The notes beneath the pieces are model-generated. The model worked only from the letters and a program-made list of their open reading frames with translations. It was not told where the DNA came from and made no database searches. A stretch of 64,000 nucleotides of DNA, from the IMG/VR virus record IMGVR_UViG_3300014720_002669. The stretch is one strand, 5' to 3'. The stretch's first letter is position 1, and each line of letters begins with the position of its first letter. Source of the stretch: a virus. Shown here one piece after another: positions 1,688 through 59,805 of the stretch. A program made the translations under genes and the position numbers.

Positions 1688-3430
1688 ATGTTCACATCTG
1701 TGAAGACTCTCGACACAGTTGAATTTGATTTGTGTGTTGATGCTCCAAAAAACAAATGTAAAATACTATTCTATCACGCCGGCGGCACGTTTGCTGGCCA
1801 CACAGCCTGGCTGTATCCAGCTGTGCTGCAATTAAAAACATATATTGATTTGTTTTATAAAAATGTTGCTGATCAACTGGAATGGTTGGTTCCCGTACAA
1901 CAAGAAATGTCAGATGACGAATTAATTCGACATATTGAACAAACTGATGTAAATGTATTGTGTACCAGCCATTACCTTTGGAATCATGCGTTTTTAACAG
2001 CCCAACTATCTCGCATCAAAAACAAGCTAAAACACAATGTCAGGGTGGTAGCTGGAGGTCCTAGCATTGACGTCAACAATAATCACAATTTTTTTGAACA
2101 ATACCCTTACATTGACTATGCAGTGTACGGTGCTGGAGAACAAGCATTTGCAGACATAGTCAGTCACTTGGTATCTAATAGACCCTTGATTGCATTCAAC
2201 ACATCAAACTGCGCTTGGAAAAATCACAACACTGGAAAACCTATTGTTGCTGATTACAAGTTTGTAAAAATGATAGAGACCAGTCCTTTTGTACACAACA
2301 AAGAATTGTTTTCTGCCATGGTGACAGATGCCAAGAAAAAAAATATTTCAGTCTGGTTACCTTACACTATCACCAGAGGATGCCCGTATTCTTGTACGTT
2401 CTGTGATTGGAACAGCGGACTTGGCAACAAGGTATCAAGAAGAAAAAATACGTATCAACAAGAAATTAATTTATTTCAGCAACTTGGGACTACTAACATC
2501 TATCTGTCAGACGCCAATGTTGGGCAGTATGACGAAGATGTTGAAATGATAGAATATTTTGGACAGAAAAATTTACAAGAGAATGCTGGTTTTCATGTAG
2601 GCGGCAATTTTAGTAAGCTGAAAAAAGATAACAATTTAAAAATTTTTCATATCATGTCTCGCACTGGGTTAGCAAGCAAAACTTTGAATTTTTCCATACA
2701 AGACACCAACCACGAAGTATTAAAAAATATCAACCGGCCTGACGTTGGATGGGACGTACATTTGTCCATGGCCAATGAACTGCAAAAAACATATCCTCAT
2801 CAAGTTATAAAAGGTCAATTAATCTACGGATTGCCCGGACAGACTGTTGCCTCCTGGAGGCAGACTCTAGAACAAGTAACTCAAGCCAACATTTTACCAG
2901 TTATTTTTTTAAACGAGCCTTTGCCGGCTAGTCCAGCCATTTATGATCCTGAATATCAAAACAAATTTAAATTTGAATATTTACAAAGCAACAGAATACT
3001 CATTGACAAGATATATTCAAGCCTAATTCCAAAAAAAAGCAGTTCTTTTGATCAGTCTGATTTGGTGCATATGAATTTGTTGAATGCAGTGTACTTTGCA
3101 TTGGCAGTGATAAATCTTGCATTAACCGAATACAATTTCAAACGCATTGACATATCAACAGTAGTTGATGATTATGTGACTACATCTAATTATCAAAATC
3201 TCTATAACAATCTTTATCATAACTGGACTGTGAATAATAATTTTTACTACACAATAGATTACAGCGGCAATGAATGTTTGATAGAAATTCAACTGCTCTT
3301 ACACGACCAAGAATTCTTAAAGTATGTGTTGTCGGTGTTGCCTAAAAATCAAAAAAGTGAAGTTTCAAAATTAGTATTCAAAAATACATTTCCTAAATTT
3401 TTAGCAGAAATATCAAAAGACATTGATTAA
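1688..3430 (+). CDS. B12-binding-domain radical SAM protein
   Basis: N-terminal B12-binding-like region (VVAGGP, YGAGE); TRGCPYSCTFCDW CxxxCxxC motif; IYGLPGQT. Confidence 0.85.
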   Translation: MFTSVKTLDTVEFDLCVDAPKNKCKILFYHAGGTFAGHTAWLYPAVLQLKTYIDLFYKNVADQLEWLVPVQQEMSDDELIRHIEQTDVNVLCTSHYLWNHAFLTAQLSRIKNKLKHNVRVVAGGPSIDVNNNHNFFEQYPYIDYAVYGAGEQAFADIVSHLVSNRPLIAFNTSNCAWKNHNTGKPIVADYKFVKMIETSPFVHNKELFSAMVTDAKKKNISVWLPYTITRGCPYSCTFCDWNSGLGNKVSRRKNTYQQEINLFQQLGTTNIYLSDANVGQYDEDVEMIEYFGQKNLQENAGFHVGGNFSKLKKDNNLKIFHIMSRTGLASKTLNFSIQDTNHEVLKNINRPDVGWDVHLSMANELQKTYPHQVIKGQLIYGLPGQTVASWRQTLEQVTQANILPVIFLNEPLPASPAIYDPEYQNKFKFEYLQSNRILIDKIYSSLIPKKSSSFDQSDLVHMNLLNAVYFALAVINLALTEYNFKRIDISTVVDDYVTTSNYQNLYNNLYHNWTVNNNFYYTIDYSGNECLIEIQLLLHDQEFLKYVLSVLPKNQKSEVSKLVFKNTFPKFLAEISKDID

Positions 3431-6690: not shown

Positions 6691-9012
6691 ATGAAAAGCA
6701 TCACAGTTGTCAAGCGCAGTGGGCGCAGAGAATCGCTCGCCTTGGAAAAATGGCAAACCCAAATTGCCAAAGTATGTGCAGGCATAGCAGACGTTAGCCA
6801 AAGCATGGTAGAGATCAAAGCACAGTTGCACTTTTATGATGGTATTACCACCAAGGAAATTGACGGTATTACCCTACGTGCCATTGTGGATCTAATTGAC
6901 GTGGAATCAAACCCTGATGTGGGGCACACCAACTATCAGTATGTGGCAGGCAAACAACGACTCAGCATGCTACGCAAAGACGTATACGGGTCATACGATC
7001 CTCCTCACTTGTATGACATTGTGAAAACCAACGTGGCCTCTGGCCTGTACACTCCTGAACTCCTAGAGTGGTACTCAGAGGACGACTGGAATCGTATGCA
7101 TGACATGATTGATCATGCCAAGGATGAATCATACAGTTATGCCGCAGTAGAGCAGTTGATTGAAAAATATCTAGTAAAGAATCGTAGCACAGGGCAAACA
7201 TATGAAACTCCGCAAGTTAGATACATGGTGGCCGCTGCCACTGTATTCCATAAAGAAGAACCTAACACAGCTCGCATGCGCTATATCAAAGAATACTACA
7301 CAGCAGCCAGCGACGGACTCTTCACTCTGGCCACACCTGTGTTGGCTGGGCTTGGTACTCCTACTAAGCAGTTTAGCAGTTGTGTTCTTATTAGATCAGA
7401 CGATGATCTCGATAGCATATTTGCCAGCGGTGAGATGATGGCTAAATATGCCAGCAAACGTGCTGGTATTGGTTTGGAGATTGGACGCTTACGACCACTA
7501 GGCTCACCCATTCGCGGTGGCGAGATCATGCACACTGGTATGATTCCTTTCCTTAAGAAATGGTTTGGCGATCTACGCTCATGTTCACAAGGAGGTATTA
7601 GAAATGCTTCGGCTACGGTTTTTTATCCCATATGGCATCTGCAGTTTGATGACCTCATTGTTCTCAAGAACAACCAAGGTACAGAAGAGACCCGGGTACG
7701 ACACATGGATTATGGTGTCGTGTTATCTGCATTCTTCTGGCGTCGCTTTAAGAACAAGGAGAACATTACGTTCTTCGACCCCAATCAAGTACCTGACCTT
7801 TATGAAGCCTTCTATAAAGACACTGCCCTTTTTGAAACACTATACGTAAAATACGAAAAAGACAGCAGCCTCCGTAAGAAAACGATGGCTGCGGAGGAAG
7901 TTTTCAAAAGTGGTATTCTCAAGGAACGAACCGATACTGGACGTATCTATCTAGTGTTCATTGACAATGTGATGGACCAAGGACCATTTGATCCTGAATA
8001 TCACACCATTTACCAAAGCAATCTCTGCTGTGAAATCCTGTTGCCCACCCGACCTTTCCGGCGTCTTGACGATGAGGAAGGTCGTATTGCATTGTGTACA
8101 TTGGGGTCAATCAACTGGGGTGCGTTCCGTCACCCCGAAGACATGCGCAGAGCCTGTCGCATCCTGCAACGCAGCTTGTGTAACATTCTTGACTATCAGG
8201 ACTTCTTGAGCATTCAAAGTCAACTCAGCAACGATGAAATCCAACCACTTGGTATTGGCATTACCAACTTGGCCTACTGGCACGCCAAGCGCGGACTAGA
8301 GTATGGCGAAACGGATGCCCTGTCAGAAGTCAAGTCTTGGATGGAGCACCAGGCATACTACCTGACCGAAGCCACAGTGGAACTGGCCCGAGAACGTGGT
8401 CGTTGTAAGGACAGCGACAAGACACGTTACGGCAAAGGTATCTTCCCGTGGGAACTACGTGCCAAGGGTGTCAACGAGTTAACAGACTTCACATCTGATC
8501 CTGCACTGGATTGGAACACCTTGCGTGGCAACATGCGAGCATACGGTGTGCGCAATGCCACCTTGATGGCAGTGGCACCGGTGGAGAGTAGTTCAGTTGT
8601 GATCAACTCAACCAACGGCATTGAAATGCCCATGAGCTTGATCTCAGTCAAAGAATCAAAAGCAGGCAGTCTCACACAAGTGGTGCCTGAATATCACAAG
8701 TTGAAAAACCGATATCAATTAATGTGGGCGCAGAAGGATTGTGTTGGCTATTTGAAAACAGCCGCGGTGTTGGCAGCATACATTGATCAGTCAATATCAA
8801 CCAACACATTCTACAATCCTGCACACTTTGCAGATCGTAAAGTGCCCACTACGTTGATTGCTAAGAATTTAATGCAAGCACACCACTGGGGCATCAAGAC
8901 ATTTTACTACAGCCTGATCAACAAGCAAGGCTCCAAAGCAGCCAAAGAAGAAGCACCATTAGAAGTCATAGACTTTGATGATGCGGAAGACTGCGAATCT
9001 TGTAAACTGTAA
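6691..9012 (+). CDS. nrdA: class Ia ribonucleotide reductase alpha subunit with ATP cone
   Basis: VVKRSG ATP cone, QFSSCVL, SNLCCEI, LCTLGSIN, C-terminal CESC. Confidence 0.98.
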   Translation: MKSITVVKRSGRRESLALEKWQTQIAKVCAGIADVSQSMVEIKAQLHFYDGITTKEIDGITLRAIVDLIDVESNPDVGHTNYQYVAGKQRLSMLRKDVYGSYDPPHLYDIVKTNVASGLYTPELLEWYSEDDWNRMHDMIDHAKDESYSYAAVEQLIEKYLVKNRSTGQTYETPQVRYMVAAATVFHKEEPNTARMRYIKEYYTAASDGLFTLATPVLAGLGTPTKQFSSCVLIRSDDDLDSIFASGEMMAKYASKRAGIGLEIGRLRPLGSPIRGGEIMHTGMIPFLKKWFGDLRSCSQGGIRNASATVFYPIWHLQFDDLIVLKNNQGTEETRVRHMDYGVVLSAFFWRRFKNKENITFFDPNQVPDLYEAFYKDTALFETLYVKYEKDSSLRKKTMAAEEVFKSGILKERTDTGRIYLVFIDNVMDQGPFDPEYHTIYQSNLCCEILLPTRPFRRLDDEEGRIALCTLGSINWGAFRHPEDMRRACRILQRSLCNILDYQDFLSIQSQLSNDEIQPLGIGITNLAYWHAKRGLEYGETDALSEVKSWMEHQAYYLTEATVELARERGRCKDSDKTRYGKGIFPWELRAKGVNELTDFTSDPALDWNTLRGNMRAYGVRNATLMAVAPVESSSVVINSTNGIEMPMSLISVKESKAGSLTQVVPEYHKLKNRYQLMWAQKDCVGYLKTAAVLAAYIDQSISTNTFYNPAHFADRKVPTTLIAKNLMQAHHWGIKTFYYSLINKQGSKAAKEEAPLEVIDFDDAEDCESCKL

Positions 9013-9014
9013 TC

Positions 9015-9929
9015 ATGGAATTCTTAGATCGCGTTGATTTTGAAAATCACAATGGGGTATATCTCTCCATGCTAAATGATGTTGCCCGTAATCAGTTCTA
9101 CGATCAAGTATTAACCCAAGTTCGTGATCATGATTGTGTAGAGATTGGCTTTGGTACAGGCTTGTTGAGCATGCTGGCCTTGAAGCACGGTGCTCGTAGC
9201 ATTGTGGCCTACGAGTCAGACCCTGATCGTTATCGCCTGGGCTGTGAAGTAATCAGGGTACTAAGCCTGCAAGATCGCATCACCTTGATCAATCAACGCT
9301 ATGATCATACCTGTAAACATGACCAAACAGTGGTGTTCACAGAAACGGTGGATGACAACATCTGGGGAGAAGGGCTCTACGACAGTTTGCCTAGACAGCC
9401 AGGCCAGCAATTTTTGCCTGGACAGTATTTTTTTGAAATACACGCTGTGCCGATATCCGCAGACATTGCTAACAGTTTGATTCAAGCACATGAAGAACAT
9501 CATTTCTCTCCAGGAGTGGACATTGATTCTCGGTTTGTGTCATATGTTAATTTGTTGCTGTCAAAGAAATACAATAAATCAATCAAACCAAAAGCAAGTT
9601 TGCCCGATGGTGTCACAGAACTAGCACCCATGCCAACCTACATAGACTGGGTCACCAACAACACCTATGCTGGTCGATATGTGGTTGATGCCAATGGGGC
9701 ATTTGTAGACAATCCCGTTAAAGAACTTCAAGTAGAAACATTCAATCAACCAGTGTTGATCGTGCCCAGAGCAGGCATGCAACACAGCAGTGATAGACTT
9801 TACTTGGATACCGGGCATTGGAAACCATCAGCAAACCCTGCTGTGATAAACTCTCCCAACAGCCGAGTATTAGTGGAACACGATCTCCGCACAGGAAAAA
9901 TCTCATATAAAATAAAGGAAAAAACATGA
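9015..9929 (+). CDS. SAM-dependent methyltransferase, PRMT-like
   Basis: SMLNDVARN; VEIGFGTGLLS; IVAYE; double-E-like TETVDDNIWGEG; THW-like GHWK. Confidence 0.75.
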   Translation: MEFLDRVDFENHNGVYLSMLNDVARNQFYDQVLTQVRDHDCVEIGFGTGLLSMLALKHGARSIVAYESDPDRYRLGCEVIRVLSLQDRITLINQRYDHTCKHDQTVVFTETVDDNIWGEGLYDSLPRQPGQQFLPGQYFFEIHAVPISADIANSLIQAHEEHHFSPGVDIDSRFVSYVNLLLSKKYNKSIKPKASLPDGVTELAPMPTYIDWVTNNTYAGRYVVDANGAFVDNPVKELQVETFNQPVLIVPRAGMQHSSDRLYLDTGHWKPSANPAVINSPNSRVLVEHDLRTGKISYKIKEKT

Positions 9930-11029
9930 GCCGAGCTCAATACAACCTAGCCACCAAAACAGATTACTTACATCGCAAGATGTTTCTTGACCCAGCAGGG
10001 CCTGTGACTATCCAACGCTTTGAAGAAGTCAAGTACAACAAACTTGTTAAGTTTGAACAAGAAGCACGTGGCTTCTTTTGGATTCCTGAAGAAGTGTCCT
10101 TGACCAAAGATGCCAACGACTTCAAAGAAGCCAGTGACACTGTGAAACATATCTTTACATCAAACTTGTTGCGTCAAACAGCACTAGACAGTTTGCAAGG
10201 TCGAGGACCAGCACAGGTGTTTACTCCTGTGGTAGGCATTCCTGAACTAGAAGCTCTAATGTATAACTGGAGTTTCTTTGAAACCAACATTCACAGTCGG
10301 TCATACAGTCATATCATTCGCAATATCTACAACGTGCCCAAGGATGTGTTCAACACCATTCATGATACCAAAGAGATAGTGGACATGGCATCAAGTGTGG
10401 GCAACTATTATGACAAATTACATCAGATCAATTGCTATAAAGAGATTGATAGACAAATGGCAGGAGAAGAAGCACACATCAAAGCCATTTGGTTGGCACT
10501 GAATGCGTCATACGCATTGGAAGCATTCCGCTTCATGGTCAGCTTTGCTACTAGTCTGGCCATGGTAGAGAATCGTATCTTTATTGGCAACGGCAACATC
10601 ATCAGCCTGATCCTGCAAGACGAGATCTTGCACCGTGACTGGACTGCTTGGATGATCAATCAAGTTGTAAAAGAAGATTCACGTTTTGCCGCTGCCAAGG
10701 CCGAATGTGAAGCCGAAGTGTACCAAATGTACCTGGATGTGATCCGTGAAGAAAAAGCCTGGGCCGACTACTTGTTCAAACTAGGTCCAGTGATTGGGCT
10801 CAATGCACAGATTTTGAAAGACTTTGTGGACTACACAGCAGTGGGAGCACTCAAAGAAATTGGTATCAAGTACCTGGAACCTGCACCACGCAGCACACCA
10901 ATCCCTTGGTTCATGAAGCATGTGGACACATCAAAAAAACAATCGGCCTTACAGGAAACAGAGAGTACCAATTATGTGATTGGGGTCATGGGCGACAGCC
11001 TTGACTACGACGAATTACCAGATTTATAA
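9926..11029 (+). CDS. nrdB: class Ia ribonucleotide reductase beta subunit
   Basis: FFWIPEEV, ETNIHSRSY, LEAFRFMVSF, DEILH, QETESTNY. Confidence 0.97.
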   Translation: MSRAQYNLATKTDYLHRKMFLDPAGPVTIQRFEEVKYNKLVKFEQEARGFFWIPEEVSLTKDANDFKEASDTVKHIFTSNLLRQTALDSLQGRGPAQVFTPVVGIPELEALMYNWSFFETNIHSRSYSHIIRNIYNVPKDVFNTIHDTKEIVDMASSVGNYYDKLHQINCYKEIDRQMAGEEAHIKAIWLALNASYALEAFRFMVSFATSLAMVENRIFIGNGNIISLILQDEILHRDWTAWMINQVVKEDSRFAAAKAECEAEVYQMYLDVIREEKAWADYLFKLGPVIGLNAQILKDFVDYTAVGALKEIGIKYLEPAPRSTPIPWFMKHVDTSKKQSALQETESTNYVIGVMGDSLDYDELPDL

Positions 11030-16037: not shown

Positions 16038-17411
16038 ATGAATGGCATTGATTTCTCACACAAACAATTCAACGGTATCACTGTGGCGGCTGATTGGATA
16101 AGGGACTTAGAAGCATCAGATAGTCGCTTGCACAAAGAACGTGTGATTGAAAAAGCACTAATGGCTGCAAAGTTGGGCAGTGCCAATGCGCAGTGTTTCT
16201 TGTTCAACTGCTATCAAGCCTACAATCCCTACTACACATTTCATGTTCGACAAGTGCCCGAAAGCGAAGGCATTGAACATGCGGAAAATCCTTGGCCTGT
16301 GTTTTGGGGACTGTTGGAAGGTCTGCGCACACGGTCATTCTCAGGACATCGTGCCCGAGATGCCATCTTGGAAACAATGAAACGCTTTGACAGTCTAGAG
16401 TGGAACAATCTCTGCAGACGTGTGTTGATCAAAGACTTGCGATGCGGCATCAGTGAGAAAACCTTGAACAAAGTGCTAGGCCGAACAGAATGGAAAATTC
16501 CTGTGTTTACCTGTCAGTTGGCACAAGACTCAACTGACCAGCCCAAAAAGCTCCGAGGTATCAAGCGCCTGGAATGCAAACTGGATGGTGTACGTGTGTT
16601 GGCGGTGGTACAAGGCTCAGATGTCACATTGTACAGCCGCAATGGCAAACAGTTTGAAAACTTTCCGCAGATTGTGCAAGCCATAGAAGACAATCGCAAA
16701 ACATTTTTAAATATTCCCCATGGTGGTCGTTTTGTACTCGACGGCGAGATTGTGGGCGAGAGTTTTCAGAAGTTAATGAAACAAGCACATCGCAAATCAG
16801 ATGCTGTTACTGATGGCATGGTGTATCATGTGTTTGACATCATACCGCTGGACAGTTTTGTTGAAGGTCACTACAACGCACAACAACACAAACGCATTGA
16901 GATGTTGGAACGTGTACGTGCGTTATTGCCTGAAGATGGACCTATCCAAATTATGAACGGCCTGGACGTGAACTTGGACACCGCCGAAGGACATGACATC
17001 ATGCAACGCTATGCCGAAGCCGCTGTGGAAGGTGGATTCGAAGGCATCATGATCAAGAGCATGGACGCACCGTACCTGTGCAAACGCACTGACTCGTGGA
17101 TGAAATGGAAACCCACCATCACAGTTGATTTGAGAATTGTGGGTTTCGAACAAGGTACTGGTCGCAATGCTGACCGGTTGGGTGCTATAATCTGTGAAGG
17201 AGATGACAATGGAAGACATATCTGTGTTAATGTTGGCAGTGGCCTGTCTGATGGCGATAGGGATGAGTATTGGCGTAGCCGGGATCTTCTTCTTGGCCAC
17301 TTGGTTGAAATTCAAGCTGATGCAGTCACACAAAACCAAGACGGATCATACAGCCTGAGATTCCCAAGATTTTTACGCTTTAGGGACTTTGAAGCTGGAG
17401 AAAAAATTTGA
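16038..17411 (+). CDS. ATP-dependent DNA ligase
   Basis: KLDGVR, LDGEI, EGIMIK, WMKWK, SLRFPRF. Confidence 0.95.
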   Translation: MNGIDFSHKQFNGITVAADWIRDLEASDSRLHKERVIEKALMAAKLGSANAQCFLFNCYQAYNPYYTFHVRQVPESEGIEHAENPWPVFWGLLEGLRTRSFSGHRARDAILETMKRFDSLEWNNLCRRVLIKDLRCGISEKTLNKVLGRTEWKIPVFTCQLAQDSTDQPKKLRGIKRLECKLDGVRVLAVVQGSDVTLYSRNGKQFENFPQIVQAIEDNRKTFLNIPHGGRFVLDGEIVGESFQKLMKQAHRKSDAVTDGMVYHVFDIIPLDSFVEGHYNAQQHKRIEMLERVRALLPEDGPIQIMNGLDVNLDTAEGHDIMQRYAEAAVEGGFEGIMIKSMDAPYLCKRTDSWMKWKPTITVDLRIVGFEQGTGRNADRLGAIICEGDDNGRHICVNVGSGLSDGDRDEYWRSRDLLLGHLVEIQADAVTQNQDGSYSLRFPRFLRFRDFEAGEKI

Positions 17412-18301
17412 AGGCATGGGCGAGATTTTATGAAAATATTCGGAACATGAACTTGCCCGAGGCCCATGACTGGCCTCATTGTTTAAATTCTGAAGATGTA
17501 AAACATTTACCAGTTGCAATTCAATTAAAAATTTTACATACTCATTTGTATCTTTCGTTTCCTACAGAAGAAACATCGTCGTTGATAATACAATTAGCAC
17601 AATCTCCACAAGAAATCGCTCAATTGTGTCAATCCACAGGTGTTGATTATTTTTTTGATAACCCAATGTTATCTTTGTCTCACGAAACTGAATGTCAAGG
17701 TATAAAAATAAAGTATCATCCCAGCATGGAGGGTGGGGGAATATATAGATCGCCAATGTTTATAGAAGTATTGTCTTTGATTGCACCCAATAGGATTTTT
17801 AATCACTGTTTAGAATGGTGTTCTGGTCCTGGATTTATTGGATTTAGTTTGGCAGGTAAGGGATTATGTAAGCAACTAGATTTGGCTGATATTTGGCAAC
17901 CTTCTCTAACTGCTGCCAAAGCTGTAAAGGCTCCTTGCAATGTTGATACCTGGCACATTAGAAATCTGTGCGATATACAACCACCTAGAATGTATGATTT
18001 GATAGTGGCAAATCCTCCTTGGTGGCCGGGCAATCTACTACAAAACCAGCACAATCGATTGGGCTCTGATCCTGAGCTGACAATTTTAAAAAAGTTCTTG
18101 AAAGATGCCAAAAACTATTTGACTCCTGATGGAATAATTGTTTTGATCGAAGGACAAACTTACACTGGACCTAAAGACATTTTAAATGCATTGGTTGATA
18201 CTGGACTTGAACTGACACAGGTTTTAGAACGTTTTGACCAATGGCATTGGTTTGTGGTGATTGAACACAAAAGTAATTTTGAAACTGGAGACAAAGTTTG
18301 A
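17408..18301 (+). CDS. class I methyltransferase with NPPW amino-methylation motif
   Basis: LEWCSGPGFIG; YDLIVANPPW. Confidence 0.8.
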   Translation: MKAWARFYENIRNMNLPEAHDWPHCLNSEDVKHLPVAIQLKILHTHLYLSFPTEETSSLIIQLAQSPQEIAQLCQSTGVDYFFDNPMLSLSHETECQGIKIKYHPSMEGGGIYRSPMFIEVLSLIAPNRIFNHCLEWCSGPGFIGFSLAGKGLCKQLDLADIWQPSLTAAKAVKAPCNVDTWHIRNLCDIQPPRMYDLIVANPPWWPGNLLQNQHNRLGSDPELTILKKFLKDAKNYLTPDGIIVLIEGQTYTGPKDILNALVDTGLELTQVLERFDQWHWFVVIEHKSNFETGDKV

Positions 18302-21240: not shown

Positions 21241-22094
21241 TCTTAGTCACCGGCGATCGCGGCTTTATCGGCAGCGAACTCAAACAATATCTTACGGCAC
21301 AAGGCCACGATGTACACGGCCTTGACTGGGACACACGTGGCAATACCTACACAACACGAACACCTGTAGAATGGATATTCCACATGGGCGCCATCAGCCA
21401 AACCAATGCTGACAACTGGGCGGATATTGTACGTAAGAACATCCAAGACACACAGGATTGGATAAACACTGCACAGCAGTGGGGCTGTGGCATCACCTAT
21501 GCTTCTAGTGCCAGCGTGTATGGTCCTTGGTCAAACAGTCCCGAATGGGGACCAGTGCAGCCACAGCACTATTATGCTGTCAGCAAGCTCACCATTGACA
21601 ACTGGTGTGCAACGCAAAACTTCACTGTACCTGTGCAGGGCATGAGGTTCTTCAATGTGTACGGACGCAACGAAGGGCACAAAGCACAGCCCAGTCCCAT
21701 ACGTAGATACATGCAACAGGCCATCGCAGGCGAACCACTCACAGTATGGCATCACAACGGCCGCTTGGGCACAAGAGATTTTGTCAGTGTGGATGATTGT
21801 ATCTCAGCAATGATGCAGTTAAAAGCAACTGAGACCAGCGGCGTGTACAACATTGGCACAGGAGTGCAACGCACATTTGAAGACATTGCTCACAGCCTAC
21901 ACCACAGATTTGACAATGCACAAGTGTTGATGAAACCCATGCCTGAGCACATGGTTGAGAAATATCAGTGGGAAAGCCGTGCTGATTTAAATAAACTGCA
22001 ATCCACAATATCCTGGACACCACAGTCGGTGGATCACTGGCTAGACAAAAACTTCGACACCCTTTACAATAAGATCATAAATGAAAACACCTGA
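21237..22094 (+). CDS. NAD-dependent epimerase, ADP-heptose 6-epimerase (HldD)-like
   Basis: TGDRGFIG, YASSASVYG, YAVSK, RFFNVYG. Confidence 0.85.
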   Translation: MILVTGDRGFIGSELKQYLTAQGHDVHGLDWDTRGNTYTTRTPVEWIFHMGAISQTNADNWADIVRKNIQDTQDWINTAQQWGCGITYASSASVYGPWSNSPEWGPVQPQHYYAVSKLTIDNWCATQNFTVPVQGMRFFNVYGRNEGHKAQPSPIRRYMQQAIAGEPLTVWHHNGRLGTRDFVSVDDCISAMMQLKATETSGVYNIGTGVQRTFEDIAHSLHHRFDNAQVLMKPMPEHMVEKYQWESRADLNKLQSTISWTPQSVDHWLDKNFDTLYNKIINENT

Positions 22095-23292
22095 AACATT
22101 AGACAACTGTAGTTTCTGCGGCAAGCACAAAGATAGTGTGGCCAAGCTGATTGTGGGCAGTGAAGTAAGCATTTGCAATGAGTGTGTGGACCTGTGCCAG
22201 ACCTTGCTCAAAGAAGAACTTCCTGAAAAATCAAAAGAGATAACAGATGACACACTGGATCCCAGAACCATTAAAGAACACCTGGATCAGTATGTGATTG
22301 GCCAGAACTATGCTAAAATGGTATTGAGTGTGGCCATTGCCAATCACTACAAACGCATTGCCAATGCTGACCCCAACACCGAAATTCAAAAAGCCAATAT
22401 TCTCATGCTTGGTCCCACAGGATCGGGCAAAACCTTGCTGGCCCGTACAGTGGCACGGTATTTGGATGTGCCATTTGTGATTGCTGATGCCACAAGTTTG
22501 ACCGAAGCAGGCTATGTAGGCGATGATGTTGAAAGTTTGATAACCAGACTGTTCACAGCCGCAGGTGGAGATGTGGGTCGAACACAACGTGGTATTGTGT
22601 TTGTGGATGAGATTGACAAAATCAGCCGCCGCAGCGAAAGTGCCAGTATCACCCGAGACGTGTCGGGAGAAGGTGTGCAACAGGCCCTGCTCAAATTGGT
22701 AGAAGGCACAAAGTGTAGAATCACTCCACAAGGTGGCCGCAAGCATCCAGCAGGCGAAACTGTGGAGATTGACACAACCAATATCTTGTTCATTGCTGGC
22801 GGTGCATTTGTGGGCCTAGACAACATTGTCAAAAGCCGTGTGAAAGGCACCAGTATTGGATTCTCAGCACAGGTTGTGGCAGACGGCACCAGTGTGACCT
22901 TGGACAAAACCACACCGGAAGACCTGATCAAGTTTGGTATGATTCCAGAGTTTGTGGGACGTTTCCCCAGCTGGGTTGCCCTGGCAGAACTCACCAAAGA
23001 AGATCTAGTGCGTATATTGCAAGACATCAAACACAGTTATGTCAGCCAGTATCAGTGGTTGTTCCAGCGTGATCAAATTGAACTCAAGTTCAGTGCCGAC
23101 AGCCTGGACTTGATTGCAGAACGCACCATGGCCAATAAAACTGGTGCCCGTGGACTGCACAGTGAACTTGAGCGTGTGTTGTTGCCGCACATGTACAATT
23201 TGACACGTTATCGCACACATGGTATTCGCACCGTTTCTATTGACAGCCAGCAGGTAAATATTCCCAAGGAGCTCAAAGAGATAAATGAATAA
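22081..23292 (+). CDS. clpX: ATP-dependent Clp protease ATPase ClpX
   Basis: CSFCGK zinc-binding domain, GPTGSGKT, DEIDK, IGF loop, GARGL. Confidence 0.97.
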   Translation: MKTPETLDNCSFCGKHKDSVAKLIVGSEVSICNECVDLCQTLLKEELPEKSKEITDDTLDPRTIKEHLDQYVIGQNYAKMVLSVAIANHYKRIANADPNTEIQKANILMLGPTGSGKTLLARTVARYLDVPFVIADATSLTEAGYVGDDVESLITRLFTAAGGDVGRTQRGIVFVDEIDKISRRSESASITRDVSGEGVQQALLKLVEGTKCRITPQGGRKHPAGETVEIDTTNILFIAGGAFVGLDNIVKSRVKGTSIGFSAQVVADGTSVTLDKTTPEDLIKFGMIPEFVGRFPSWVALAELTKEDLVRILQDIKHSYVSQYQWLFQRDQIELKFSADSLDLIAERTMANKTGARGLHSELERVLLPHMYNLTRYRTHGIRTVSIDSQQVNIPKELKEINE

Positions 23293-23509
23293 ATCACGTG
23301 CAAGATCAGTATTGGTGCAAGATGACAACATTGAAAAGGCCCTGCGCAAGTTTAAGAAAAAAGTTCAAAATTCCGGCATACTAAATGATCTTCGAGAATG
23401 TGAATTCTATATCAAACCTACCACTGCTAGAAAACTCAAACGCAGTGCAGCCAAAAATCGTTGGCGCAAACAAGTAGAAGCCCAACAACTGCCTCCCCGA
23501 ACACATTGA
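23285..23509 (+). CDS. rpsU: ribosomal protein bS21
   Basis: NIEKALRKFKKKV..GIL..EFYIKPT. Confidence 0.92.
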   Translation: MNKSRARSVLVQDDNIEKALRKFKKKVQNSGILNDLRECEFYIKPTTARKLKRSAAKNRWRKQVEAQQLPPRTH

Positions 23510-23563
23510 TTTTTTATCAAAATCTAATAATTTTATTCAGATTTGTGTTATAATAAATACTGC

Positions 23564-23622
23564 TGTAGTGCCTATTGTGGGGCTACAAAACTTAATCTTG
23601 CTTAACAAAGGAGAACATTATG
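23564..23622 (+). promoter_or_regulatory. ROSE-like RNA thermometer leader of dnaK
   Basis: Hairpin with bulged G, then CTTGCTT able to pair with the AAGGAG SD. Confidence 0.6.
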
Positions 23623-25509
23623 AGCAAAGTCATTGGTATTGATCTGGGTACCACAAATTCATGCGTAGCCGTTATTGAAAACGGAATCCCCCGAGTAATT
23701 GAAAATTCAGAAGGTGCTAGAACAACACCCTCGATTGTTGCTTATGCCAACGAAATTCTTGTGGGTGCCAGCGCCAAGCGCCAAGCAATTACCAACCCAA
23801 AAAACACAGTGTATGCAGCCAAGCGCCTGATTGGCCGCAAGTTTGCAGAACCAGCTGTGCAAAAAGACATCAACTTGATGCCATACAAAATCATTGCCAA
23901 CGACAACGGCGATGCCTGGGTTCAAGTCAACGAAGACAAACTGGCACCACCACAGATCTCAGCAGAAGTCTTGCGCAAGATGAAAAAGACTGCAGAAGAC
24001 TATCTGGGCCATGAAGTCACACAAGCAGTGATCACTGTGCCTGCATACTTCAATGACAGTCAACGTCAGGCCACCAAAGACGCTGGTCGCATTGCTGGCC
24101 TGGAAGTGTTGCGCATCATCAATGAACCCACAGCAGCCGCACTGGCCTATGGTGTAGACAAAACAGACAAACGTGACCGCAAGGTTGCTGTGTATGACTT
24201 GGGCGGTGGTACCTTTGATGTGAGCATCATTGAACTGGCCGACGTTGACGGAGACAAACAAATCGAAGTACTCAGCACCAATGGTGACACATTCCTAGGC
24301 GGTGAAGACTTTGATCAACGCATCATGGACTTCTTGGTAGAAGAATTCAAGAAAGACACTGGCGTGGACTTGACTCGAGATGTGTTGGCCCTGCAACGTC
24401 TCAAAGAAGCCGCAGAAAAAGCCAAGATTGAATTGTCAAGTTTAGCACAAACAGATGTGAACCTGCCGTATATCACAGCAGATGCTTCGGGTCCCAAACA
24501 CTTGAATGTCAAGTTGTCACGTAGCAAGCTGGAGCAATTGGTTGAAGAACTGATCAAGCGCAGTATCGAGCCTTGCAAAACAGCCATGAAAGATGCTGGT
24601 GTGAGTGCTGGTGACATTGACGAAGTTATTCTTGTTGGTGGTATGACACGCATGCCCAAGGTGCAAGAAGAAGTCGAACGACTGTTTGGCCGAGCACCTC
24701 GACGCGATGTCAATCCTGACGAAGCAGTGGCTGTGGGTGCGGCAGTACAAGGTGCTGTGTTGAGTGGCGAACGCAAAGACGTGCTCTTGTTAGACGTGAC
24801 ACCGCTGTCATTGGGCATTGAAACCATGGGCGGTGTGTTTACCAAGTTGATTCAAAAGAACACCACCATCCCAACCAAGGCCAGTCAGACATTCAGCACT
24901 GCCGAAGACAATCAGCCTGCTGTGACAATCAAGGTGGCACAAGGCGAGCGAGAGTTGTTCAAGTTCAACAAAACTCTGGGCGAGTTCAATCTTGACGGCA
25001 TTGCACCAGCCGCACGTGGAACACCACAAATTGAAGTGACATTTGACATTGATGCCAATGGTATCATGAAAATCAGTGCCCGGGACAAAGGCACAGGCAA
25101 AGAAAACAAAATCACCATCAAATCCAATTCAGGTTTGAGTGAAGCTGAAATTCAACAAATGATTCAAGATGCCGAAGACAATGCTGAATCAGATAAAAAA
25201 GCACGTGAGTTGATTGAAGTACGTAACAGTGCAGAGTCAGCACTGAACACACTGCAAACTGATTTTGACAAATACAAAGATCAAATCACAGAAGAAGAAC
25301 GTGCTCAAGTAGAAACAGCATTGAAAGCAGTTGAAGATGCCATTGCCGGAGACGACGTCACGGCAATACAAGAAAGCATACCCAAACTGTACGAAGCAAT
25401 TGGCCCAATCACCAAGGCCAAACAACAGGCCCAAGAGGCCCAAACACAACAATCACAAGACCCAAATGTGGTTGATGCCGAAGTTAAAGAGTCTGCAGAG
25501 GCTGTTTAA
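23620..25509 (+). CDS. dnaK: Hsp70 chaperone DnaK
   Basis: [17 protein letters not shown], full-length NBD plus SBD. Confidence 0.99.
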
Positions 25510-39348: not shown

Positions 39349-39844
39349 ATATCACGTCCCGGCATTCTGGGATGATGAATACAAACGGCTAGACTATGTC
39401 AACGAGTCGTTCAACGATTCAGTCAGTGTGAATCTTTGGACCAGTCAAGGCTATGCCAACCAGTTCACTGGCGACATGTGTGACATGCGCAGTCCACAAC
39501 CCAGTTGGAATCAAACATTTGTGGACATCTACACAGAGATGGGCTGGAAAGACATAGGAACCAGTTACTATAGAATGACCACTGGCACTATATTACCTGT
39601 ACATCGTGACTTGTATATTCGTTATATTCAATTGTTCAATTTACAAGGCCAAGAACATCGCATACGCAGAGTCATTGTGTTTTTGGAAGACTGGAAAAGT
39701 GGCCATTACTTTGAAGGTGCAGGAAAACCAATGACTCAATGGCATGCAGGCGATGCCATTGAATGGGTTTATGACACACCACACATGGCAGCCAACTTGG
39801 GTCTGGAGCCTAGATATACACTACAAATTACAGGATGGGTATGA
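39317..39844 (+). CDS. 2OG-Fe(II) oxygenase-like protein (start uncertain)
   Basis: PVHRD (HxD)..PHMAAN..RYTLQITG. Confidence 0.75.
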   Translation: MFTTVTPDLIKYHVPAFWDDEYKRLDYVNESFNDSVSVNLWTSQGYANQFTGDMCDMRSPQPSWNQTFVDIYTEMGWKDIGTSYYRMTTGTILPVHRDLYIRYIQLFNLQGQEHRIRRVIVFLEDWKSGHYFEGAGKPMTQWHAGDAIEWVYDTPHMAANLGLEPRYTLQITGWV

Positions 39845-48240: not shown

Positions 48241-48834
48241 ATGCCAAATCTAGTGCCCATAGTTTTAGAACAAACTGCCAAAGGCGAACGCAGTTACGAC
48301 ATCTACAGCCGACTGCTCAAAGATCGTGTGATCATGCTGGATACCGAAGTAAGCGAACATTCGGCCAGTTTGATTGTGGCACAGATGCTGTTTTTGGAAA
48401 GTGAAAATCCTGACAAAGACATCAGCCTATACATCAACTCACCCGGCGGATCAGTCACAGCCGGCATGGCCATCTACGACACCATGCAGTTCATAAAGCC
48501 GGGTGTGCATACCATTGTCATGGGGCAGGCCTGCTCCATGGGATCATTGCTGGCACAAGCAGGTGCTCCGGGCCGGCGTTTCATATTGCCCAATGCCAGA
48601 CACATGATACACCAACCATCGGGTGGCGCAAGAGGACAGGCCACTGACATGCTGATTCAAGTGGAAGAGATTTTGGCCATGAAGCGTAATTTGACAGGTA
48701 TATACGTTAAGCACAATTCAGCAGGCCGGACATTTGAACAACTCACAGCCGACATGGAACGTGACAACTTCATGAGCGCACAGGAAGCAGTTGACTATGG
48801 TCTTGCTGACAAAATTGTAGAAAACCGTACATGA
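48241..48834 (+). CDS. clpP: ATP-dependent Clp protease proteolytic subunit
   Basis: [34 protein letters not shown]. Confidence 0.97.
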
Positions 48835-50099
48835 CATTAAAAGACTCATTTTGCCCCAGCCCTTGGTTTCACATGCGAATCAACAACAGTGGGCACTATG
48901 AGTATTGTCGTTGGGCCGATAAAGCCCACAGAACCACTGGCTCTAACATAAGTGATACAACTCCTGCTGAATTTTTTAATCAGAATCTGATTCCTATTCG
49001 CCAACAGTTATTAAATGGCGAACGCCCAACTGGATGTGCTGAATGCTATCAAATGGAAGCACACGACAAGATAAGCGGTCGACAAAAACAACTGCTGAAA
49101 ATAGGTGTGCAGTTATGGGAGTTTGACAAGATGTTGGCCAGTTCTCCCTGGATGCCTGTGTTTGTCAATCACATGCCGCAGATGCCACAAGACTGGCAAA
49201 TTGATCTAGGCAACTATTGCAATTCGGCCTGTGTGTTTTGCCATCCAAGTTTTAGTTCACGACTGGCCACAGAATGGAAACAACTTGGTTTCATTGACAA
49301 AACACCACCGGCAAATTGGTGTAATGACCCTGTATATCTACAAATTTTTATTGATACACTGGTCAAAAGTCCGCATATACAGTATCTACATTTCATTGGC
49401 GGAGAAACTTTGATCACTCCGGCATTTAAAAAAATACTTAAAGCATTGATTGATGCAGGCTTGAACAAAACTGCTACCATTGGATTTACCACAAATCTTA
49501 TTAGTTGGGACAATGACACAATATCACTGTTGACACAATTTGTTGGAGTAAATCTTGGTGTTAGTATAGAAGCATTTGATTCTATTAACGAATACGTAAG
49601 ATGGCCAGCAAAACAACAGCAAGTTATTAGCATACTATCACAGTGGGTTGCGCTTAGTCAACAACACAATTGGTTGATGCAAATTAGAACCACTCCTACT
49701 ATACTTACAATTCACAAATTACTCACAGTTTATGACTATGCCTGGGAACATGGTATTGTGGTGGAAAGTTGCAATTTTTTAACCGAACCGTCTTATCTGC
49801 GACTAGCAGTGTTGCCACAAAAATATCGTCAACCTATAATAGATCAGATGCAGGCTTGGATTGATCAACGGCCTAACAATACAAAAACTGTGGTAAACAT
49901 TAGACACCCAGATTTTGTATACGCACAAATTGCACAAGATTTGCAAAGTTATGTGAATTATTTAAAAACTGAAACAGATCAAAGCGATCAGTTGCCGGTG
50001 TTGATACAGTTTTTAAAACGCCTTGAACTCAATAGAAAAAACAATATCTTAGACCATGTACCACAATATGAAGAACTTTTTAGATCTGCTGGCTACTGA
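48831..50099 (+). CDS. radical SAM protein with N-terminal twitch/SPASM-like Cys motif
   Basis: FCPSPW..YC..CAEC; [11 protein letters not shown]; GGET. Confidence 0.87.
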
Positions 50100-56218: not shown

Positions 56219-56493
56219 TGTTTGGCACAGGATACAATGATCATCGAGCCCAACTGGGCTATTCTGTAAGAACTCAGGCCGAAGTGGATCAAGCATTTTA
56301 TGGTCGTGCTCAATGGCGTGAACAGTTTGCATGGTGGCCACATCGATGTGCGATCTCAGGTCGTTGGTGCTGGATGAACTTTCACTATCAAGGTCAGGCA
56401 GTGTGGACTGGACCCGGTGACGATGCGGTAGAAGTTCGTTGGCATGATTGCCATGAGCATTTGATTTGGACACTAAAGGGTCCACACGGATGA
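56209..56493 (+). CDS. hypothetical protein
   Basis: FAWWPHRC motif; coupled ORF. Confidence 0.65.
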   Translation: MGLMFGTGYNDHRAQLGYSVRTQAEVDQAFYGRAQWREQFAWWPHRCAISGRWCWMNFHYQGQAVWTGPGDDAVEVRWHDCHEHLIWTLKGPHG

Positions 56494-57107
56494 AAATAAT
56501 TCGGGTCGAACCCATTACCCCCATGATCTCCTTGAGCTGGATGTTGGGCACCAGGTGCAACTATGATTGCATGTATTGTCCTAGTACATTACATGACACA
56601 ACCAGTAAACATCCAGATCTGAATAAGTTAATTCAAACATGGGATAATTTTTATCAACGCACCAAGGATCGACAAATACCTTACAAAATATCGTTCACTG
56701 GTGGGGAAGTTACTGCCAATCGTAGTTTTTTACCGTTACTAAAATACATCCGTAATAACAATTTTAATATTGGACAAATCCTAGTGACAACCAACGGCAG
56801 TGCAAGTAAAAATTATTATGCAAAATTAGCAGCATTGGTTGATGCCATCAGCTTTAGTACGCACAGTGAATTTTTCAACGAACAAGAATTTTTTAACAAA
56901 GTAAGTATCATACATCAAATCATGATTCGGCCAGAAAAAAGTGTGCATGTCAACATCATGGACGAATCATGGAATCAAAAAAGAATTCCTGTATATCAAT
57001 CTTGGCTAGATCAACGTGGTATCAGTTACTCTGTAAATGCAATTGATTATTCCCAACAAATTCGCAATGTAGCTGTTCAACAAGGGGTAACAAATCTTGT
57101 GGCCTAA
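56490..57107 (+). CDS. radical SAM core domain protein
   Basis: GTRCNYDCMYC, FTGGEVT, TTNGS. Confidence 0.85.
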   Translation: MKIIRVEPITPMISLSWMLGTRCNYDCMYCPSTLHDTTSKHPDLNKLIQTWDNFYQRTKDRQIPYKISFTGGEVTANRSFLPLLKYIRNNNFNIGQILVTTNGSASKNYYAKLAALVDAISFSTHSEFFNEQEFFNKVSIIHQIMIRPEKSVHVNIMDESWNQKRIPVYQSWLDQRGISYSVNAIDYSQQIRNVAVQQGVTNLVA

Positions 57108-57877: not shown

Positions 57878-58073
57878 TTGCGGTGCCCAACAGGCCTTGG
57901 CCCTCAAGCATCAGTTGGATCTTGATGGGCTCATAGTGAACCAAGACTACACCTGGCGCTACGAAAAGCCAGTGTATGACAACTTTGCCTGGACAGAAAG
58001 TGAAGTCAACCATGTGACATTTACTTTTCGTAATCCTGCACTGGCCACGTTCTATAAACTCAAATGGTCATAA
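57849..58073 (+). CDS. hypothetical protein (same C-terminal family)
   Basis: [17 protein letters not shown]. Confidence 0.65.
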
Positions 58074-58081
58074 CTAATAAT

Positions 58082-59014
58082 ATGACAATCACAAGCCAAG
58101 ACAATTTTAAACACAAAATCCACAACAATAAAATGATTGAGCCTAGAGACTGGATGCCCGATCAGTATCGGCGTACTCTAATTAGACAAATAAGTCAACA
58201 TGCACACAGTGAGGTTGTGGGCATGTTGCCCGAAGGAGACTGGATAGCACGGGCACCCAGTCTAAAACGCAAAGAAGTGTTGTTGGCCAAGGTACAGGAT
58301 GAAGGCGGACACGGTCTGTATCTTTATTCAGCCGCAGAAACTCTGGGTGCCAGCAGAGATAGTTTGATTCAAGATCTTCATGCAGGCCTGGCCAAGTACT
58401 CAAGTATATTCAACTATCCTACCCTTACCTGGGCAGACGTGGGTGTGATAGGTTGGTTGGTGGATGGTGCTGCCATCATGAATCAAATACCCTTGTGCCG
58501 TTGCAGTTATGGACCTTATGCTAGAGCCATGATTCGCATTTGCAAGGAAGAAAGTTTTCATCAACGTCAAGGCTATGACTTGTTGCTGACCATGATGACA
58601 GGCACTGACGAACAACGTGACATGGTACAAGATGCTGTGGACCGTTGGTGGTGGAAAACTCTAACCATGTTTGGTCCACCTGATGCAGAGAGCACCAACA
58701 GTGAACAAGGCATGGCCTGGGGCATCAAACGTCATACCAACGATGACTTACGACAAAAGTTTGTAGATGCCACTGTGCCGCAGGCTGATTATCTTGGTGT
58801 CAAATTACCAGATCCAGATCTCAAATGGAATGACACTCGTAATCACTATGATTTTGGTGAAATAGACTGGGCAGAATTTTGGCAAAATGTCAACGGCAAC
58901 GGCCCTTGCAATGTTGAACGCCTTGAGGCTCGCAGCCAAGCCTATGAATCAGGTGCATGGGTGCGTGACGCAGCCATGGCCTATGCTGAAAAACAAAAAG
59001 AAAAACAACAATAA
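58082..59014 (+). CDS. paaA: phenylacetyl-CoA 1,2-epoxidase catalytic subunit
   Basis: [55 protein letters not shown]. Confidence 0.95.
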
Positions 59015-59805
59015 TGAAATATCTAGCATTGATTTTTTTATTTGTGGCCACCACAGTGTTGGCTAGAGAACCCAGTGTTTACGTGTACAACGAAACCACG
59101 GACCGGATTGAACACCAACGCAACTCAACAGAGTTTCGCAGCATTGCCAGCATCACCAAGCTGATGACTGCCATGGTGGCCCTGGATCACAGCAAGGACC
59201 TGTTTCGTCGACTGCCACTCAACACCACTGTCCGAAGCAATCTGCCACGTGGTCAATACACACGTCAAGAACTTTTTGATGCCATGCTGGTACGATCGGA
59301 CAACGCAGCCGCAGAAACTCTAGCCGCGGACTACCCTGGTGGTAGGAAAGAGTTCATATGGAAGATGAACCAACAGGCCCGAGAGTGGGGTATCAATGCT
59401 GTGTTTCGTGATCCCACTGGCCTGCATCCGGGCAACATGGCCACTGCTGGCGATGTGGGCCACCTGGCTGTGTATGCCGCTGGCTACTGGGTCATACGTG
59501 ATGCCAGTGTGAAAAAGACCGTGGCCTTTGAACGCAAATTCAAAAAGAAACTACGCAAAATACAACTCAACAACACCAACCGACCGCTGTTGATGGAGTT
59601 TGATGAGATCATTGCGTCAAAAACTGGATTTACCAACTCAGCCAGATATTGTGTCGCACTTGTGGTAGAGCATGAAAAACAACGGCGAGTGATTGTGGTG
59701 TTGGGAGAGCGCAACAAAAGCCGTAGAATGGACACAGTGCAAGACATCATGTACAATCATGTGCTGGATCAAAATTTGCAGGACCCTGGGTACATCAATA
59801 ACTAA
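59014..59805 (+). CDS. peptidase S11 D-Ala-D-Ala endo/carboxypeptidase (PBP7-like)
   Basis: Signal peptide; SITK (SxxK), SDN (SxN), KTG. Confidence 0.92.
   Translation: MKYLALIFLFVATTVLAREPSVYVYNETTDRIEHQRNSTEFRSIASITKLMTAMVALDHSKDLFRRLPLNTTVRSNLPRGQYTRQELFDAMLVRSDNAAAETLAADYPGGRKEFIWKMNQQAREWGINAVFRDPTGLHPGNMATAGDVGHLAVYAAGYWVIRDASVKKTVAFERKFKKKLRKIQLNNTNRPLLMEFDEIIASKTGFTNSARYCVALVVEHEKQRRVIVVLGERNKSRRMDTVQDIMYNHVLDQNLQDPGYINN

Follow-up and report, generated by a model that had tools for sequence, protein, structure and literature searches.

A PRMT-like gene carried as exchangeable cargo between nrdA and nrdB of freshwater phages: a probable guanidino methyltransferase

In a 64,000-nt stretch of viral DNA (hereafter the window; IMG/VR record IMGVR_UViG_3300014720_002669), the listing of open reading frames (ORFs) contains a plus-strand ORF of 304 aa with an ATG start between nrdA and nrdB, the ribonucleotide reductase (RNR) genes, and its product resembles protein arginine methyltransferases (PRMTs). 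The best explanation overall, which we consider reasonably probable, is that this gene encodes a PRMT-fold guanidino methyltransferase, likely acting on protein arginine, and that phages carry it as swappable cargo in the nrd operon. An initial annotation of the same DNA had read the product as a phage arginine or guanidino methyltransferase; the PRMT family and fold are supported by profile matches in PDB and by Foldseek, whereas its idea that an amidinotransferase of the phage makes the substrate received no specific support.

Sequence and predicted fold place the product among PRMTs

When the window protein was compared with PDB by phmmer, 59 of the 60 chains listed were PRMTs, with a best E of 1.5e-12. 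Among the matches listed, PRMT9 scored E 1.5e-12 to 5e-12, in an alignment spanning residues 17 to 126, and PRMT7 scored 1e-9; lower scores were obtained, in this order, for PRMT3, Hmt1, PRMT1, CARM1, PRMT6, PRMT8 and PRMT2. A profile was made from alignment A1, which comprises 47 full-length family members with 20–85% identity to the window protein and underlies the conservation figures below. With this profile all 60 matches listed were PRMTs, including mouse PRMT7 (4c4a, E 1.7e-26), PRMT9 (1.6e-24) and Trypanosoma brucei PRMT7 (7.3e-21), and its alignments to PRMT7 and PRMT9 again paired both glutamates of the double-E loop. At the level of sequence, the similarity to PRMTs is far beyond chance.

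An AlphaFold2 model built with A1 reached a pLDDT of 94.7 and a pTM of 0.89. When the model was compared with PDB by Foldseek, every match listed to rank 50 was a PRMT and the alignments covered the whole chain; the best match was T. brucei PRMT7 (4m38, E 7.5e-17, TM 0.61), and PRMT3, CARM1, PRMT1, PRMT6, PRMT9 and PRMT8 were among the further matches listed. Since these matches are full-length, both the Rossmann and the beta-barrel domain would be PRMT-like, and a C-terminal beta-barrel joined to the Rossmann domain, as is expected of a PRMT, is present in the predicted model. The initial annotation had named a likeness to PrmA or small-molecule methyltransferases, together with loss of the double-E pocket, as the result that would speak against its reading; the model is PRMT-like over its full length, and the glutamates are conserved.

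General family collections gave only faint matches. The best Pfam match of the window protein was PrmA (E 0.0074, 16.3 bits, below the cut-off of 22), the NCBIfam model TIGR00406 scored 16.7 against a cut-off of 183 and was thus sub-threshold, PHROGs returned one family of unknown function, and PADLOC returned a weak generic methyltransferase match only (mad2, E 8.7e-4). PrmA identity was rejected, as the scores fall below the curated family cut-offs and the N-terminal substrate domain of PrmA is missing. Type I PRMTs are marked by YFxxY in the N-terminal helix. Assignment to this type (PRMT1/3/6/8, CARM1) was rejected as well, because the protein has no Y-F-x-x-Y, has only 18 residues before ML, and scores in favour of PRMT7/9.

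Catalytic motifs and the chemistry they suggest

All five motifs pointed out by the initial annotation are present in the translation, in the order that it gave (Table 1). The equal glutamate spacing that it had noted is borne out too: E110 and E119 lie 9 residues apart and are aligned by HMMER to the PRMT double-E pair, matching residue for residue both glutamates of PRMT9 TETVDAGLFGEG, mouse PRMT7 TELFDTELIGEG and T. brucei PRMT7 SEIFGTMMLGES. Eleven positions are invariant in A1 (47/47), namely R25, N26, G45, G47, G49, L51, A55, A60, E67, E110 and P135, and at least 90% of the members have M19, D22, W117, E119 and W269. Motif I, VEIGFGTG (residues 42–49), fits (V/I)(L/E)(D/E)(V/I)GxGxG and is aligned to motif I of PRMT7/9. 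The late GHWK corresponds to residues 267–270; in all 29 phage sequences D265, G267 and W269 are invariant, and H268 varies.

By homology, R25 would bind the carboxylate of S-adenosylmethionine (SAM), which would be held by motif I (G45/G47/G49), R25 and E67. The guanidinium would be clamped between E110 and E119 while the DxGHW loop (W269) closes the pocket, and the methyl group would pass from SAM to a terminal guanidino nitrogen. Taking the motif and fold analyses together, the enzyme most likely methylates guanidino nitrogens. By analogy alone, the 'GEG' double-E loop, which resembles that of PRMT7/9, would point to mono- or symmetric methylation.

Names given to clusters of the family at 90% identity are limited to 'hypothetical protein' and 'predicted RNA methylase', and JGI uses the latter for some members. 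This label, together with Pfam matches that are only weak (PrmA, Cons_hypoth95, FtsJ), would agree with an enzyme that uses the PRMT fold on a non-guanidino target (nucleic acid, lysine or a peptide terminus, for example). We regard this as very improbable, as both double-E glutamates and the THW-like W are conserved and the translation has no (D/N/S)PP(Y/F/W), which is motif IV of nucleic-acid amino-methyltransferases; on the same ground, membership of that enzyme class was rejected.

Single-module PRMTs need homodimerisation, and the model of the phage protein has a helical insertion where PRMTs carry the dimerisation arm (Table 1). Relatives carry large insertions after residues 160/161, within this region.

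The gene occupies a cargo site at the nrdA|nrdB junction

Pfam identifies both flanking genes, which confirms the location given by the initial annotation. Its word 'inserted' is also literally right: in seven PRMT-less relatives that were inspected, nrdA directly overlaps nrdB, and compared with them the window has exactly one additional ORF. These empty sites read ...TGC AAA TTA TGA GCC..., where the nrdA stop overlaps the nrdB ATG, and the window preserves the ATGA coupling to nrdB. Moreover, three contigs without the PRMT-like gene run collinear with the window at 65–89% nucleotide identity, with a clean break at 9006|9926. One collinear PRMT-less contig is also without DnaK, an aminotransferase and two other methyltransferase genes, and hence gene-sized cargo indels are common in this phage group.

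No promoter-like or terminator-like site was seen on the plus strand between nrdA and nrdB in a scan of the sequence. Given this and the tight junctions (Table 1), nrdA, the PRMT-like gene and nrdB would form one translationally coupled operon, and the arrangement reads as co-transcription of the PRMT-like gene with the RNR genes. Since the gene is coupled with the phage RNR genes, its product would be expected in infected cells, in the phase of nucleotide synthesis. Contigs of RNA library X22 cover 9223–9922 of the ORF with 8–30 mismatches per piece, and RNA library X23 covers 9614–9841 with 2 mismatches; both libraries may contain DNA, and for this reason the contigs do not establish transcription. 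In one X22 contig, 9006 is followed directly by 9956, a jump of 949 nt with only 21 letters on the shorter side, which hints at a PRMT-less variant.

Table 1. Features of the PRMT-like gene, its product and its neighbours in the window
Feature	Position	Strand	Observation
PRMT-family methyltransferase gene	9015..9929	+	PDB sequence and profile matches; predicted model; fold matches over residues 1-304
SMLNDVARN, residues 18-26, N-terminal helix motif MLxDxxRN	9066..9092	+	aligns with MLHDKDRN and MLNDTKRN of PRMT7/9
VEIGFGTGLLSM, residues 42-53, SAM-binding motif I	9138..9173	+	G45, G47, G49 and L51 invariant
IVAYE, residues 63-67, post-I strand ending in an acidic residue (ribose-binding position)	9201..9215	+	E67 invariant (47/47)
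TETVDDNIWGEG, residues 109-120, double-E loop	9339..9374	+	E110 invariant; W117 and E119 at least 90%
Helical insertion early in the barrel, residues 148-186, at the place of the PRMT dimerisation arm	9456..9572	+	model helices 149-157 and 172-185
Hypervariable part of the beta-barrel, residues 187-246	9573..9752	+	lowest information content, most indels
DTGHW, residues 265-269, candidate THW-loop equivalent	9807..9821	+	position and pattern only
nrdA, class I RNR large subunit, left flank	6691..9012	+	Pfam barrel E 1.5e-106, with all-alpha and ATP-cone domains
Upstream junction	9010..9017	+	TAA stop of nrdA (9010-9012), 2 nt, then PRMT-like ATG at 9015
Downstream junction	9926..9929	+	ATGA: PRMT-like TGA stop overlaps nrdB ATG
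nrdB, RNR small subunit, right flank	9926..11029	+	Pfam E 4.4e-41

Among the family loci fetched, 79 of 80 adjoin nrdA, nrdB or both and keep the gene order of the window; in the exception, L080, the PRMT-like gene stands beside a peroxiredoxin gene and a radical SAM gene. Seen from the nrd genes, the picture is sparse. We examined 72 loci with both nrd genes, drawn from the best 80 of at least 604 NrdA relatives (83–98% identity), and only 6 of them carry the PRMT-like gene between the two. The distance from nrdA to nrdB in these loci was −1 nt (ATGA overlap) in 12 and 11–17 nt in 7, with the rest ranging up to 3,185 nt.

Alternative cargo was sampled as 27 gap-filling ORFs from the relatives' loci L083–L162, which were run against Pfam. 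They comprise three class II aldolases, two Fe/Mn superoxide dismutases, two isocitrate lyases and two NifU/IscU proteins, together with single cases of an FAD oxidoreductase (DAO), a Tim44-like protein, DUF6071, a fatty-acid desaturase and an Asp/Arg beta-hydroxylase-like protein; two further ORFs had sub-threshold matches (HNH, Methyltransf_16), and 11 had no Pfam match. The Asp/Arg beta-hydroxylase-like 2-oxoglutarate (2OG) oxygenase (L087:7241-8038, on the contig also holding L021; Pfam E 1.8e-14) lies directly between a PRMT-like gene and nrdB, and is a possible second protein-modifying enzyme.

In another phage lineage, a divergent PRMT-like ORF of 279 aa (G021:C1:54387-54875, minus strand; profile E 2e-27) lies ∼20 kb from an nrdB of different type (42% identity). 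Its position shows that the family is also found outside the nrd junction.

Translational coupling between nrdA and nrdB, and the 79 of 80 viral family loci at the nrd site, would be expected if the enzyme methylated NrdA or NrdB or otherwise tuned RNR. This we find very improbable, since 66 of the 72 related loci, with NrdA 83–98% identical, are PRMT-less (12 with nrdA directly overlapping nrdB), unrelated cargo occupies this site in other loci, some family members lie elsewhere than at the nrd genes (L080 by peroxiredoxin, G021 ∼20 kb from nrdB), and the conservation of NrdA and NrdB is the same whether or not the PRMT-like gene is present. From the comparison of loci, the PRMT-like gene is best described as an optional one-ORF cargo cassette in a hotspot, and not as part of RNR function. 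Its exact insertion into an ATGA-coupled junction, its patchy presence, its differing alleles in near-identical backbones and the concentration of their variation in barrel residues 187–246 are new. The nrdA|nrdB junction is thereby a well-defined cargo hotspot, which is useful for finding further accessory genes.

Selection and exchange of alleles

By the Nei–Gojobori method on 61 unsaturated pairs, the PRMT-like gene has a dN/dS of 0.145, compared with 0.051 in nrdA and 0.074 in nrdB. These ratios indicate that the PRMT-like gene is under purifying selection, looser than that on its neighbours. A gene that is optional and evolves faster than its neighbours might be decaying or functionless filler in a recombination hotspot. 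This is extremely improbable: the window and 79 of the 80 loci fetched have an intact frame (the tblastn match at L028 is split), dN/dS is as low as 0.145, catalytic residues are invariant among members that are only 20–45% identical overall, and the translational coupling to nrdB is preserved.

At NrdA identities of 92–97%, the identity of the PRMT-like protein spans 46% to 91%, and at one locus (L035) dN is 0.044 for nrdA and 0.40 for the PRMT-like gene. Because PRMT divergence is decoupled from that of the flanks, different alleles (304-aa, 324–327-aa and other types) share the slot in near-identical backbones. Mean identity to the window protein is 51% over residues 1–131, 38% over 132–186, 21% over 187–246 and 36% over 247–304, and most insertions in the family follow residues 160/161, 212 and 231. 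Phages would thus appear to exchange very different alleles, which differ mainly in one face of the beta-barrel.

Which guanidino group is methylated

For arginine in one or more host or phage proteins as the substrate, we put the chance slightly above even. Protein arginine is favoured because the closest relatives are protein enzymes, and because the part that varies and is exchanged is the barrel surface and not the catalytic pocket; changing macromolecular targets fit an exchanged, variable surface better than a fixed metabolite does.

Several points weigh against a protein arginine methyltransferase. The barrel half has no sequence-detectable similarity to PRMTs, so that the barrel is assigned from the predicted structure, and the profile of the C-terminal part (A2, 29 sequences) found no PRMT in PDB, its sole match being an unrelated chain at E 1.3. 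The assignment of DTGHW as a THW-like loop likewise draws on the predicted structure. Fast evolution of the barrel could reflect relaxed constraint instead of changing targets. No RGG- or RG-rich substrate candidate was found among the 158 ORFs of the 103.6-kb record to which the window belongs, and searches of related records found no conserved partner gene. Moreover, a PRMT fold alone is no proof of a protein substrate, since SznE/StzE methylates free L-arginine according to PMC11705231.

The enzyme might instead act on a small guanidino substrate and not on proteins, either free L-arginine, giving N-omega-methyl-L-arginine as with SznE/StzE, or the product of the amidinotransferase, as the initial annotation had proposed. 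SznE/StzE is described as an arginine-guanidino methyltransferase acting on free arginine (PMC11705231), and other cargo at the nrdA|nrdB site consists of metabolic enzymes. The amidinotransferase of the proposal is also real. The ORF at 39835–40755 (+) is of the StrB1/AGAT type, matching 1bwd (StrB1) at E 1.9e-63 and AGAT at ∼1e-26, and also SxtG and HsvA; such a gene was found in 5 of 5 large PRMT-positive records compared with 0 of 5 PRMT-negative fragments.

Counted more widely, the gene loses this association. There are 195 relatives of the amidinotransferase in IMG/VR. Twenty-one records carry it, of which 19 also hold nrdB, and 13 of these 19 have no PRMT-like gene, including a complete 374-kb genome. 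Thus, the amidinotransferase is a common gene of the phage group rather than a specific partner, and was rejected in that role; the enzyme predicted by the initial annotation stands, and the substrate-supply link has no specific support. In addition, the PRMT-like and amidinotransferase genes lie ∼30 kb apart in separate operons, and a hypervariable, indel-rich barrel face with swapped alleles is unexpected for an enzyme of a fixed metabolite. On balance, we consider a small guanidino substrate unlikely, although a serious competitor, and retain protein arginine as the preferred substrate.

A HemK/PrmC-like (MTS) methyltransferase at 17408–18301 (+) was also tried as a partner and rejected, as none of 23 related records holds it, among them all 8 PRMT-positive ones that were searched; it is thus a rare accessory gene of the window phage.

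Distribution, host and source phage

Family members form 438 clusters at 90% identity (E ≤1e-3), all metagenomic, many of them exactly 304 aa, on contigs of up to 365 kb. An exhaustive search of representatives at 50% identity returned 629 at E ≤1e-3, 153 at ≤1e-10 and 64 at ≤1e-30. When IMG/VR was scanned with a sequence pattern, 98 of 99 matches were family relatives (98 loci); the same type of scan over 185,579 prokaryote species, each represented by one genome, gave a single partial match of 44 residues, and the phage clade was otherwise not found there. The nearest ESM-Atlas clusters are 86–100% viral, and BFVD holds one full-length look-alike, annotated as 'AdoMet_MTases domain' only. 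From these searches the family looks almost exclusively viral, and it is without database annotation as PRMT. It is large and recurrent in freshwater and estuarine metagenomes.

No match was found in 50,697 GenBank phage records by tblastn with the window protein and the distant members P0259 and P0176, nor by DNA megablast against GenBank phage records. No fused or tandem form was seen among proteins of 533–2000 aa, which is weak evidence. Five genomes of Burkholderiales, the likely host lineage, gave generic SAM-motif matches only. In a sample of 301 Burkholderiales genomes, 8 contain stand-alone ORFs that are distantly PRMT-like and stand in unrelated contexts; the highest-scoring one reaches 78 bits over profile positions 19–157.

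The IMG/VR record of 103.6 kb is judged to be ∼30% complete, and relatives of 343–364 kb have 97–100% completeness. Judging from the sizes of these near-complete relatives, the source is a jumbo phage of roughly 350 kb. The DnaK of the window is closest to those of Burkholderiales (Limnohabitans, Rhodoferax, Polynucleobacter and Comamonadaceae metagenome-assembled genomes; 66–80% identity), and near-identical DNA recurs in lake, river and estuary metagenomes. We infer that the host is probably a freshwater betaproteobacterium.

Other genes of the phage

The window also encodes ribosomal protein bS21 at 23285–23509 (+; Pfam E 4.6e-18), and a 72-aa ORF outside it (G000 72840–73058) was judged IF1-like by eye from its translation. 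A chaperone/protease set at 22081–25509 and 46091–48834 comprises a ClpX-like ATPase, DnaK (Hsp70 E 1e-256) and two ClpP-like genes; contig G336, collinear in other respects, lacks DnaK. Three radical SAM genes are present: one at 1688–3430 (+) of the B12-binding KedN5-like C-methyltransferase type, one at 48831–50099 (+) of the twitch-domain type (NF033640, E 4.9e-74), and a third, smaller gene at 56466–57107 (+) with weak matches to viperin, MoaA and QueE. At 58064–59805 (+), the gene of a PaaA/PaaC-like oxygenase subunit (E 8.8e-96) precedes that of a D-Ala-D-Ala carboxypeptidase (E 6.4e-35), a host-like pair that is unusual in a phage.

Significance and comparison with known systems

Methylation of protein arginine is regarded as a regulatory system of eukaryotes and is barely documented in bacteria. 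A limited full-text literature search found no paper on a phage-encoded PRMT, and a term search of a jumbo-phage survey gave no mention of PRMT, protein methyl or amidinotransferase (PMC7824862). Phage protein methylation is described as barely explored in a 2026 study of a mycobacteriophage tail protein whose methylation depends on the host (PMC13445384).

As a tentative proposal, to which we give somewhat less than an even chance, freshwater jumbo phages may run their own protein arginine methylation during infection, with a swappable, hypervariable barrel face that retargets a phage-only PRMT in an arms race. Possible targets of this clade would be host or phage factors of translation, transcription or defence. 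If the proposal is true, no earlier arginine-methylation system would have been described in a bacteriophage. Should the enzyme methylate proteins, it would represent a new kind of host take-over or counter-defence chemistry, and it would provide a compact 304-residue PRMT for structural and engineering work.

PrmA, the methyltransferase of ribosomal protein L11, shares with the phage protein the SAM-binding Rossmann core. The fold of SznE/StzE is PRMT-like. Compared by description only, SznE/StzE of streptozotocin biosynthesis shares SAM-dependent methyl transfer to a guanidino nitrogen and differs in that it acts on free L-arginine within a biosynthetic cluster (PMC11705231). Bacterial PRMT-like peptide methylases of secondary-metabolite operons, described by Aravind and colleagues, are thought to be the origin of eukaryotic PRMTs (PMC3417536). 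They are prokaryotic and belong to the same superfamily as the phage family; the PRMT-like ORFs of Burkholderiales match the phage profile weakly (≤78 bits, compared with ∼390 between phage members), and their contexts differ.

PRMT9 (6pdm, 7rbq, 8rbk) is a tandem two-module enzyme with TPR repeats, whereas the phage protein has one module. The substrate of PRMT9 is a splicing factor, which is not known to have a bacterial counterpart. PRMT7 provides both the best profile match (mouse 4c4a) and the best Foldseek match (T. brucei 4m38); the references were the single-module enzyme of T. brucei (4m36/4m38/5eku) and the tandem enzymes of mouse and Caenorhabditis elegans (4c4a/6ogn/3wst). Compared with PRMT7, the phage protein is shorter (304 aa), has a very short N-terminus and is phage-encoded, and identity is 15–20% in structural alignments, with a barrel half that is undetectable by sequence. 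The two share the MLxDxxRN helix, motif I, a double-E loop of the 'GEG/GES' type and the domain order (Rossmann domain, then beta-barrel), and T. brucei PRMT7, like the phage protein, is a single module.

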